Shown here: piece by piece, positions 37,816 through 47,614 of the stretch
Layout: each line of letters starts with the position of its first letter
Numbering within the stretch: position 1 is the stretch's first letter
DNA from: Dictyostelium discoideum
Lineage: Eukaryota
Length of the DNA stretch: 64,000 bases
Direction: 5' to 3'
NCBI GenBank assembly: GCA_000004695.1
Contig: CM000154.2
Coordinates: 4,352,001-4,416,000, forward strand
The notes under the pieces: generated by a model
The model's input: only the letters and a program-made list of their open reading frames with translations
What the model was told of the DNA's origin: nothing
The model's database searches: none
Position numbers and translations under genes: made by a program

Positions 37816-39535
37816 TTAGAATTTTACAACTTTTACATCATCTAATAATTTGCAAACATCAAGAGATTGATTAAAATCATTTGATAAAATGATCTTTTTT
37901 ACAGACTTTGGAATTGAACCATTTAATAAAGGTTGTTTTAAATAACCTAAATGTAATTCTTCAACAGAATCTGGAATTATTGATGGTAATAAACATTGAT
38001 CAAATCCATTTTGTAATGAAATACATTTTACAGAATTTGGAATTGAACCTTCCAATAAATCTTTTTTAATAGCATGAATATCTAACCATTGGATACCATC
38101 TGGTACAATACCTGGTAATAAAACTTGATTAAAGTTACTACCGAATGTAATATTCTTAATTGTATTTGGTATTGAACCAAACATTAACTCTTTTTTAATA
38201 TCATGAATTGATAATACTACAACTTCATTTGAAATTACACCAGGTAGTAATTGATCGAATCCATCATTAATTGTTAAAAATTTTACTGATTTTGGAATTG
38301 ATCCTTCAATTAATGGTTTATCTAATTGAAAACAATGGATTGTTTTAATGGTTTCAGGTAATGTTCCTGGTGAAATAAATTGATTAAATCCATTCAATAA
38401 AATAATTGAATTGACATTTGGTCCAAATTTAAATTTTGATAAATTACCACAATCTTTACCAAATGCAATATTTGAAATGTTTTCATTTTCAATTGGGAAT
38501 GGGTAACTTTCTGAGTAGACATAAAATTTTAATCCATTATCTATTTTTTTTAATCAAAATAATTAAAAATTAATATCATTATTTTAATTTTATAATAATT
38601 GTTTTTAATTTATACATACAAGTTACATATCTGTAATTATCTTTATCAAATTGAATATTATTTTTATCATTTACATTTTCATTATTATTATTATCTTCTT
38701 GATTAATTTTATTTGAAACAATTTCATTTTTATTTTTTAAAGAAAAAAATGATTTAAATGATTCTTTTACATTATTAAGTTCATTATTATTAATGGTAAT
38801 AATATTATTTTTATAATTATCAGAAATTGTATTATTATTTTTTTCTTTTAATATAAGTAATGATTCTTGATATTTTTTAATAATATTTTTAATTTCTTTA
38901 TTAATTTCATTTTCATTTTCTTTTTCATTATCATTTTCTTTTTCTTTTTCATTTTCATTTGATAATTTTTTAATTTCATTTAAATTATTAATTGAAATTG
39001 AATTTTTAATACTTGATAATATTTGATCATAATTATTAATTGATGTTGTTATTGAAGAATTTAAATTTGAATTTTCTTCAAGTGTTGATTTTAATTGATT
39101 TTTTAAATCATTTTCAATGATGTTGATTAAATTATGAATTTTTTTAAATTCATTTGTTATTAATTCAATATTATTATCAAATTCATTTTTAATTTGATTA
39201 TATTTATTATTTGATAGATTTAATAAAATTTTATCATTTTTTATTGTTTCTGAAATTGTTGGATGAATTTTATTTTTGAAAATTTCAATTAATGATAAAA
39301 CATTGGTTTCATCCAATAGGTTTGCTTTATGACCTCTATGATGTTTATCACTTGTTAAACAATGAATGCAACATGGTATTAATTCACAATCTGAGCATAA
39401 AAATGTAATTTCATATTTTGGGTGTAATTGACATTTATTAATATTATTATTATTATTATAAATATTAATACTATTATCTTTATTATTAATTATATTATTT
39501 AAAACATTTTCATCAACAACATTATTTGAAATCAT
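37816..39535 (-). CDS. Diverged, inverted B-box/coiled-coil/FNIP gene. Two exons: 39535..38620 and 38540..37816.
   Basis: Exon 1 encodes CQLHPKYEITFLCSDCELIPCCIHCLTSDKHHRGH followed by a Glu/Lys/Asn-rich coiled coil. The donor t|GTATGT is at 38619, in phase 1. Only the distal acceptor ATAG (38543-38541) gives an open frame (..YRYVT|Y NGLKFYVYSESYPFPIENENISNIAFGKDCGNLSKF..LLNGFNQ). The proximal CAG would create TAA. Exon 2 encodes 7-8 FNIP repeats. Confidence 0.6.
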
Positions 39536-40044: not shown

Positions 40045-41418
40045 TTATTTTAATTTTTTAAAATTTTTTCTATAGATTTTATTATTTGGATTATATTCTG
40101 AACATTTTGGATCATTTTTAGGTGCAGGTTCACATAGGCAATAATAATCTAAATCATGATAAATATAAATACAAGGATCTTTTATAAAACAAACATTACC
40201 ACCTTCAAATATTTTAATATTTGAATTTTCATTAAAAATAGTAATATTCTTACAACCTGAATTTCTATTTACAAATCCTACTAAATTAAAATGATCAATA
40301 TATGTAACATTAATTAAATTATTTCTACCAATTAAAAATTTTAATGAATTTGGATCATTTCCAAAATAACCAACTGCTCTGAAAAATCCTATAAAAAAAA
40401 AAAAAAAATTTTATTATTTTATTAATTTAAAAATTAAAATAAATTATAATTATTATTTTTTTAAAAAAAAAATCACATACCTCCATTTGAATCTGGTTGA
40501 GTTTTAATTGAATCAATTGTAATTTGTTTTTTTTGATCACAATTTGGACCAATGTAGCCATATTTACAATGACATTCATAAAAACCACCACTAATATAAC
40601 CAAATTTACAATTTGATAAAGGTTTATATTCTGAAAAGTTCCAAATTATTTCATTTTGAATAATTTTAAATTGAAGAGGTTCATTATTATAATTTAATAA
40701 TTTACCAATATTACATCTAATTGTATAATTATTTCTTGATGTTATATTACATGGTTTATTATCAATTGTGATTCTATAAATTTGATTCTTGTAAAAGTAT
40801 CCTATCAACCTAACTTCTCCACCATCAACTTTTGCAGGTTTCAATTGAAACACTTCAGGTTTAAATTTTTCACAATTTTTACCAAAATAACCTGCTTCCC
40901 AACATATTCTTCTACCTGTTAATTCTGATAATGTAGTTTCACTACCACCACTACCACTACCACTACCACCATTTTTATATTCTATTGAATAATTTACTCT
41001 AGTATCTTCAAAAATAATTATATCTTTTAAATTATATGGATCTTTAAAATTGTAATCATCCAAAATTTTAACGATTGGATTTACTATATCACTTTTTTGA
41101 AAATAATCTGAACATCTTGGAAAACCTTTTAATGTTGGTTCACAAAGACAATAAAAATCTTTACTTTGATTATAATACATGTTATTACATCTGTTTGCAT
41201 CAAAACATAATAGATCATTACCACTAAATAATAATTCATTAGTTATTGAATCATAAATTGATATTTTCTTACATCCAATATCACCTTTAACAAAACCAAA
41301 AATTTCTCTAGAATCAATAAATGAAATATTTGCTCTATTATTATTATTATCACCAACTATAAAATTCATTGGGTTTGGATATTTACCAAAAAATCCAATT
41401 GCTCTAAAAAATCCTTTC

Positions 41419-41455
<37 letters not shown>

Positions 41456-42048
41456 AATATTTTAAAAATAAATAATTAATTAAATTATTTACCTCCTTTT
41501 TCTTCTGGTTGAGTTAAAATTTGATCAATTGAAATTGGTCTATCTTTATCACAATTTGTACCAACATATCCAAAATCACAAACACATTTTATAAAACCAC
41601 TTGTTATATAACCATTTTCACATTCTGGAAATGGTGTATATTCTGGATATGTCCAAATTATACCATTTTGATAAATTTTAAAATCTACAGGTTCATAATC
41701 TTTTAATTCACCGATATTACATTTAATAGAATAATTATCATATGATGTAATATTACATGGTATATTATCAATTGTAATTTTATATTCATTTTTATCATAA
41801 AAATAACCAACTAAACTAACTTCACCACCTTCAAGATTTGCAGGAACTAATTGAAAAACTTCTGGTTTTGTTTTTTCACAATTTGAACCATATCTTCCTT
41901 CTTGAGCACACGCTCTTAAATTATTTAATTCACTCGATTTTAAATCTGAAATAACATTTGTATCAATTGACCAACTACCTTGTGTTAAAATTATATTATA
42001 ATAATTATTAATTAATAATATTAAAAAATATAATTTTATAATATACAT
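40045..42048 (-). CDS. Secreted cysteine-rich protein of about 610 aa with an A-B-A'-B' module structure. Three exons: 42048..41493, 41413..40481 and 40388..40045.
   Basis: Exon 1 has a signal peptide (MYIIKLYFLILLINNYYNIILTQG) and module A (..CEKTKPEVFQL..GGEV.L.GYFY..ITIDN.PCNITS....I.CNIG...CDFGYVGTNCD...GG). The donors g|GTAAAT (41492) and g|GTATGT (40480) are both in phase 1, directly after a GG dipeptide. Exons 2 and 3 each begin GFFRA[IV]G[FY]FG. The track ORFs 41485..42048 and 40473..41420 are exons 1 and 2. Confidence 0.55.

Positions 42049-42536: not shown

Positions 42537-42545
<9 letters not shown>
42481..42545. repeat. (ATTTT)~12 microsatellite next to the 3' end of the UBE2O-like gene.
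   Basis: Direct reading of the sequence. Confidence 0.85.
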
Positions 42546-45916
<3,371 letters not shown>

Positions 45917-46764: not shown

Positions 46765-47048
46765 TTAATGACTGCTATTCATTTTTGCTAAAAATGCACC
46801 CCACCCTATATTACAAACATTCATAAAAGTAACTCTGTGTATGCTACTTATATAAGCGAAATTTACGAAATTGATGAATGGCCAAACCACACAATCTGAA
46901 ACATATGTTGTCAACCAATCCTTTTTAAGTTTTTCTACGATATCATCCTTTGATTTACCTTCTAAAATACCCATACCTAAAAATAAATAAATAAAAAAAT
47001 AATAATAATAATATTAAAAATAATTTATTATTTTAGTAAATTGAGAAT

Positions 47049-47098
<50 letters not shown>

Positions 47099-47614
47099 GG
47101 GTGTGTGGGTTGGTTGGAAAAAAAAAAAAAATGAAATTTCGAAAAGATTGGAATTGATTGAATATTGAAATTGATTTTTATAAATATATACCTGAAAAGA
47201 ATAAAAAATTAAAAACTGGTGAACAAACCACTTGATCAATTGTCAATTTTATAAAAGCATGTCTATATGATTTTTTAGGAAAATGTTTATCTAAATATTT
47301 AAACCAATAATGAAATAGTGGACCTGTAACAGCGAATCCAAACACTGCCATTCTCATTGACCTTTTGAAATCATATTTTTTATCTTTGTCTCTACTTAGT
47401 TCAATACCTTGTACTAATGAATCTGATATTAAATATAAAAAACCTGAAGTTACCGCCTAATAATAATAATAATAATAATAAAAATTAGTATTGGGAGAGA
47501 GAAAAAAAAAAAAAAAATAAACTTTATAATTACCTTTGTAGCCACTGGATATTTATGTAGTTGTGAAAGATAATGTGATTGAGCTAATTTTAAACCTACT
47601 AGTAATCGACTCAT
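46765..47614 (-). CDS. Mpv17/PMP22 (Sym1) family peroxisomal/mitochondrial membrane protein of about 185 aa. Three exons: 47614..47534, 47456..47192 and 46976..46765.
   Basis: Exon 3 carries the family motif ..DCVVWPFINFVNFAYISSIHRVTF.N..NIGWGAFLAKM (W-P-x-x-x-NF). Exon 2 reads ..GFLYLISDSLVQ..AVTGPLFHYWFKYLDKHFP... Exon 1 reads MSRLLVGLKLAQSHYLSQLHKYPVATK and ends at the donor aag|GTAATT. Intron 1 ends at TTAG and intron 2 at TTAG. Only exon 3 is in the ORF track. Confidence 0.6.

Follow-up and report, generated by a model that had tools for sequence, protein, structure and literature searches.

Tgr proteins (TgrB1/TgrC1) and ComC are extracellular cell-surface proteins of dictyostelids composed of IPT/TIG-type sandwiches, and ComC also contains EGF-like repeats. 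IPT/TIG domains are likewise arranged in tandem in the ectodomains of MET, RON, and plexins. Growth of repeat proteins by intragenic tandem duplication is a textbook route, in which introns located inside the duplicated block are copied together with their position and phase. Here, we analyzed DDB_G0290627, a Dictyostelium discoideum gene of 3 exons located on the minus strand (40045..42048) of the window (the whole 64-kb stretch of DNA that was analyzed), which encodes a protein of 610 aa with 28 Cys. This protein is much smaller than Tgr and ComC and lacks a transmembrane segment, and searches of the protein database and with HMMER produced no significant sequence match to Tgr or ComC. We also considered whether it could be a Tgr (tiger) allorecognition receptor and rejected this identity because its only hydrophobic window is N-terminal, its C-terminus is basic, and no Tgr matches were obtained. 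Unlike MET, RON, and plexins, the protein has neither a Sema/PSI head nor a transmembrane segment nor a kinase, and it carries an EGF-like knot after each IPT domain. Its best non-self match is DICPUDRAFT_41509 from D. purpureum (263 aa, XP_003293083.1; E 1e-17, 35% identity), which shares with DDB_G0290627 the order signal peptide, IPT, EGF, IPT, EGF and a phase-1 intron in the GG of the second IPT domain (IPT2), but differs in having one A-B unit, a full 6-Cys terminal EGF, and no equivalent of 2 extra Cys of IPT2. As in intragenic tandem duplications in general, a contiguous block has been copied in frame in DDB_G0290627 with an intron included. Because the breakpoints would fall within exons and the intron lies within a domain, this case differs from the classical shuffling of a symmetric domain-encoding exon.

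The coding sequence of DDB_G0290627 starts with the ATG at 42048-42046 on the minus strand and ends with the TAA stop at 40047-40045. The spliced CDS of 1833 nt produces a 610-aa translation that matches the DDB_G0290627 protein annotated in D. discoideum AX4 (UniProt Q54FR6, named EGF-like domain-containing protein in the database) with 100% identity and 100% coverage. The gene is thus already annotated with exactly this model, and the exons and junctions (41493/41413 and 40481/40388) that the initial annotation had proposed from the sequence are exact. The gene is organized as follows:

Exon 1: 41493..42048, minus strand, 556 nt; N-terminus resembling a signal peptide, then module A and the opening strand of IPT2.
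Intron 1: 41414..41492, minus strand, 79 nt; GTAAAT...AAAG, GT..AG borders, 96% A+T, phase 1, in codon Gly186.
Exon 2: 40481..41413, minus strand, 933 nt; single open frame spanning B, linker, and A'.
Intron 2: 40389..40480, minus strand, 92 nt; GTATGT...ATAG, GT..AG borders, 96% A+T, phase 1, in codon Gly497.
Exon 3: 40045..40388, minus strand, 344 nt; B', 15-aa basic tail, and TAA stop.

The last base of exon 1 is the first base of the Gly186 codon. As had been described, a TAA and a TGA occur in frame just past the donors (GGT AAA TAA and GGT ATG TGA, respectively). These stops, located 2 to 3 codons past each donor, could mean that the 3-exon model is an annotation artefact, and that the locus contains either a short 187-aa gene followed by non-coding or pseudogenic remnants or two genes. 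We consider this highly improbable. Exon 2 is an open frame of 311 codons that contains neither its own start codon nor a signal peptide. Comparison with the D. cf. discoideum orthologue shows that exons 2 and 3 have been kept as coding sequence (overall dN/dS 0.31, and 0.18, 0.58, and 0.19 for exons 1, 2, and 3, respectively), with indels of these 2 exons in frame only. Moreover, the motif GG[HD][VI].A.G[FW]F (GG-x4-G-[FW]-F), which is continuous in the intronless paralogues DDB_G0272606 and DICPUDRAFT_77300, is restored in DDB_G0290627 only by the proposed splices, which provides good comparative support for the predicted junctions. Finally, independent annotations of 3 genomes contain the same gene model. 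Annotation and comparative evidence are thus the basis on which the splice junctions are predicted. Within intron 1, the polypyrimidine tract (41419-41447) is an unbroken run of 29 T in AX4, while the tract of D. cf. discoideum has just 12 T, and the acceptor context is GAAAG in AX4 versus ATAG in D. cf. discoideum.

Comparison of the protein with itself (BLASTP, aa 1-340 against aa 341-610) bore out the order A-B-A'-B' that had been read from the sequence. Residues 34-289 and 343-595 are colinear and share 130 identities over 258 aa (50%, E 6e-98). In tblastn, A and A' were approximately 56% to 57% identical, and B and B' approximately 41%. The genomic period of the 2 units is approximately 1006-1012 bp, and they are separated by a linker that is unique to the first half of the protein:

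Repeat unit 1: 41103..41949, minus strand; aa 34-289, intron 1 included.
Linker: 40944..41102, minus strand; aa 290-342 (53 aa), ending in a (GGT AGT)n Gly-Ser microsatellite.
Repeat unit 2: 40093..40943, minus strand; aa 343-595, containing intron 2, with the domains ordered as in unit 1.

Each unit consists of an EGF remnant, a first IPT domain (IPT1), a 4-Cys EGF, a second IPT domain (IPT2), and a degenerate EGF. All 14 Cys of unit 1 are paired with Cys of unit 2. The protein is therefore Cys-rich, as the initial annotation had stated, with 28 Cys instead of the approximately 30 given there, and the EGF-like Cys spacing that it had assigned to the protein applies to only part of them, since 4 Cys per unit are in the beta-sandwich domains. 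The ratio dN/dS between unit 1 and unit 2 was approximately 0.8 (NG86), with a dS of 0.48 from unit to unit versus 0.08 between orthologues, both dS values being unreliable under the codon bias of Dictyostelium. The Gly-Ser end of the linker (40944-40973, aa 333-342) is a (GGT AGT)n repeat that varies among strains, reading GGSGSGSGG in AX4, GGGGGGSGG in D. cf. discoideum, and SGSGSGSGGGSGSG in another D. discoideum strain; all these differences in linker length are in frame.

The A and B modules are related to each other. Each of them is an IPT/TIG beta-sandwich followed by an EGF-like knot, and the profiles of the A and B families aligned end to end in hhalign (probability 97%, E 1.3e-10). 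When A and B were compared without family profiles, by pairwise BLAST or two-sequence hhalign, the similarity was not significant (E 0.18). B modules of homologues matched the A-only paralogue described below by tblastn, with E values down to 7e-12. The Pfam TIG model (PF01833) scored 31.6 bits on the whole protein versus a cut-off of 20.9; on the separate modules, A reached 23.1 bits, A' remained below the cut-off with 17.8 bits, and neither B nor B' produced a match alone. The model of the second ComC beta-sandwich (ComC-type, PF24143) scored 23.1 bits, below its cut-off of 27, and all Pfam EGF models were below their cut-offs as well (8-18 bits versus 21-27 or more). The central knot of the unit has 4 Cys (C-x11-C-x-C-x8-C), and the terminal knot of each unit has lost 2 Cys relative to homologues that keep 6. 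These knots are best described as EGF-derived regions and not as canonical EGF domains.

Structural models of the unit are in line with this domain assignment. An AF2 model of unit 1 based on a 10-sequence alignment (pLDDT 74.8) contains two 7-stranded sandwiches (unit residues 30-104 and 140-223) with a small Cys knot between them; modelling confidence is low for the terminal EGF-like region of each unit. The best PDB matches of the unit model in Foldseek were the IPT tandems of MET and plexin (E 1e-8 to 1e-6), on which both sandwiches superpose (E 1.4e-8 for MET 5lsp and 1e-6 for plexin A1). This likeness is at the fold level only, with 11% to 14% identity, and phmmer of the protein against PDB sequences gave no match. 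The single-sequence AlphaFold model of the whole protein had a pLDDT of 35 and was unusable. Altogether, these results identify A and B as old duplicates of one IPT+EGF unit, and the family exists as 1-, 2-, and 4-unit forms. Approximately 19 residues of the second IPT-like domain precede the intron, which coincides with the beginning of strand 2 of this domain. The A|B border is thus an exon border and not a domain border.

Both introns of DDB_G0290627 fall in one column of a codon-aware alignment, in the second Gly codon of GG, which is split G|GA in phase 1. The identical position and phase noted by the initial annotation thus stand, while its placement of the donors directly after GG needs correction because the second Gly codon is itself split. 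The chance that 2 intron sites coincide in this way is approximately 1 in 770 (about 256 codons x 3 phases). No similarity above shuffles was found between the sequences of intron 1 and intron 2 (score 23 versus a shuffle mean of 31), and the homology argument is therefore one of position and phase only. Unrelated intron sequences would also fit 2 separate insertions into one and the same proto-splice site (GAG|G) that followed a duplication free of introns, such as a cDNA-mediated one. Both sites indeed read GGAG|GA, which fits a proto-splice site, and 2 paralogues, DDB_G0272606 and DICPUDRAFT_77300, are intronless. Against this, the single-unit homologue DICPUDRAFT_41509 contains one 57-nt phase-1 intron (L002 5443-5499) at the homologous position, splitting the second Gly codon of ...HFGG|YFYANGFFG. 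One ancestral intron covers all 3 occurrences, whereas independent gain requires 3 hits at 1 of approximately 770 positions. Furthermore, the AT-rich introns of Dictyostelium quickly lose alignable similarity: the D. cf. discoideum orthologue (609 aa) keeps both introns at the same place and in the same phase, with lengths of 70 and 68 nt, and many indels are needed to align even these orthologous introns. We therefore regard independent gains as barely conceivable. The presence of the D. purpureum intron in the same Gly codon shows that the intron is older than the doubling and was copied along with the unit from a single-unit ancestor. Since the intron occurs in both copies, the duplication was DNA-based, which excludes a cDNA-mediated route.

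To place the doubling among the relatives of the protein, we compared the A-B units of the family. When 1.84 billion (1.84e9) representatives were scanned exhaustively with HMMER, no more than 5 other matches emerged, corresponding to 4 dictyostelid proteins and 1 coelacanth IPT-repeat protein. The 3 matches covering both modules (P0002, P0003, and P0004) did so in a single stretch with a single A-B unit each, and all other A-B family members found have one unit, none of them showing the A-B-A'-B' order. In D. discoideum, DDB_G0272606/DDB_G0274037 (285 aa) has orthologues in D. citrinum, D. dimigraforme, and D. cf. discoideum, which were found by profile search; this protein and its D. citrinum and D. 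dimigraforme orthologues share the A-B domain order with DDB_G0290627 but are single-unit, intronless, and only 28% to 29% identical to it. D. purpureum also contains DICPUDRAFT_9634/77300 (249 or 494 aa), and a 175-aa protein of the D. discoideum group contains module A only. A 176-aa D. discoideum paralogue (L006 3001-3531) is intronless and consists of one EGF-IPT-EGF unit, the one-unit state of the family; no B-like sequence that could represent a hidden B exon was found within 3 kb downstream of it. In DICPUDRAFT_77300 (L004 2001-3485), extra EGF repeats precede the single A-B unit. Behind this unit come a stretch rich in Ser, a Cys-rich region, and a hydrophobic C-terminus, a possible membrane or GPI anchor. 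This layout suggests that some family members are probably surface-bound and not soluble. No orthologue of DDB_G0290627 was found among the annotated proteins searched of D. citrinum and D. dimigraforme; these species may lack the gene, or their copies may be unannotated or too diverged.

In a neighbor-joining (NJ) tree of A-B units, the 4 units of D. discoideum and D. cf. discoideum formed one clade in 500 of 500 bootstraps. Each unit is conserved between these 2 organisms at 96% to 97%, and units 1 and 2 are 53% identical to each other, versus at most 35% to any other protein found among the 1.84 billion representatives. In addition, both units share derived Cys characters that are absent from single-unit relatives: the gain of 2 Cys in the second sandwich and the loss of 2 Cys in the last EGF. 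The grouping of DICPUDRAFT_41509 with DDB_G0290627 was recovered in only 59% of the bootstraps. Because the 2 units are sisters and share these Cys changes, the doubling is younger than the divergence from all remaining known family members and older than the separation of D. discoideum and D. cf. discoideum.

The duplicated A-intron-B block postulated for this gene is thus supported by the sister relationship of the units, by the single-unit relatives, and by the intron of DICPUDRAFT_41509. Tandem duplication at the genomic level of a single A-B unit with its intron, inside the gene, very probably explains DDB_G0290627. The ancestor would have been a two-exon gene of approximately 260-290 codons that encoded a signal peptide, EGF remnant, IPT, EGF, IPT, and EGF. 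Its only intron, in phase 1 and within IPT2, would have separated signal peptide, A, and first strand of IPT2 from the rest of B and the tail, a layout that DICPUDRAFT_41509 still shows. One tandem duplication of approximately 1 kb (1006-1012 bp) would then have copied the unit plus its intron, and the outcome would be the present 3 exons: signal peptide and A in the first; B, linker, and A' in the second; and B' and tail in the third. Since the origin of the linker could not be detected, we infer the placement of the breakpoints: the first in exon 1 just past the signal peptide, the second in the last exon close to its 3' end.

Duplication of the whole gene in tandem followed by fusion of the 2 copies would give an identical product, A-B-A'-B' with both introns. 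In this case, the 53-aa linker would be what is left after the first stop codon, the DNA between the 2 copies, and the signal peptide of the second copy had been lost. The homology of unit 2 begins where the mature unit 1 would begin (aa 34 is aligned to aa 343), and the beginning of the linker weakly resembles the C-terminal tail (NP..KI...NFK), which would fit a retained old tail. However, local alignment of protein and DNA detected no significant similarity of the linker to the N-terminus/signal peptide, the C-terminal tail, or the 300-nt 5' and 3' flanks of the gene (scores at or below the shuffle means), and tblastn found no tandem paralogue of the gene in the 64-kb window. Fusion moreover requires at least 2 events versus one, and we consider it unlikely. 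Under the preferred duplication within the gene, DDB_G0290627 is a tidy and datable case of growth of an extracellular repeat protein, from 1 IPT+EGF unit to 2 (A-B) and then to 4, in which the intron carried along marks the copied block, and it shows that exon borders do not need to match domain borders in such duplications. It is a neat but ordinary case because the public annotation of the gene already gives this very model and the mechanism is a familiar one.

The N-terminus of the protein is its only hydrophobic 19-residue window and has small residues at positions -3 and -1 of the predicted cleavage site (T-Q-G). It defines the following feature:

Putative signal peptide: 41980..42048, minus strand; aa 1-23 (MYIIKLYFLILLINNYYNIILTQ|G), with the cleavage site predicted.

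This region is helical in the single-sequence AF2 model of pLDDT 35, and homologues have similar N-termini. The C-terminus is basic (KIYRKNFKKLK) and contains no anchor, and the protein is thus probably secreted and soluble. It contains 10 N-x-S/T sequons, and a disulfide-rich, glycosylated extracellular protein is a reasonable inference from its sequence. A role in extracellular binding, adhesion, or matrix would be a guess from the domain types. Literature searches returned 0 papers for the gene identifier DDB_G0290627 and nothing relevant for IPT/TIG with EGF in Dictyostelium. One could imagine that the doubling was an innovation confined to the D. discoideum species complex: a secreted IPT-EGF protein that was monovalent would have become bivalent, could bridge 2 copies of a surface partner, and would have taken on a new function in the cohesion of cells with each other or with the matrix in the course of multicellular development. 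The family is tiny, restricted to dictyostelids, and fast-evolving, as seen in the unit-to-unit dN/dS, and these traits are compatible with recognition as a function. Nevertheless, we see this as a rather doubtful proposal.

Regarding the neighborhood of the gene, synteny as support for orthology with DICPUDRAFT_41509 was not found: the locus of this D. purpureum homologue is unrelated and not syntenic with the window. Neighboring genes did not lead to the D. citrinum and D. dimigraforme loci either, as a cluster look-up yielded D. discoideum only and a search with UBE2O yielded no orthologues from close species. Upstream of DDB_G0290627, on the minus strand, there are a UBE2O-type E2 gene (42537-45700; UQ_con plus UBE2O SH3-B and SH3-C) and an Mpv17/PMP22-like gene (46768-47460). 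This UBE2O and Mpv17 pair is syntenic with D. purpureum (L003), and the synteny breaks off where UBE2O ends on its 3' side: the adjacent D. purpureum gene encodes a polyketide synthase and takes the place of the IPT-EGF gene. Downstream, a B-box zinc-finger ORF is followed by FNIP repeats (37816-39535, minus strand); together they are probably one spliced gene, for which the D. cf. discoideum annotation gives 543 aa. Further downstream is the tRNase Z gene DDB_G0290623 (35215-37650, plus strand).
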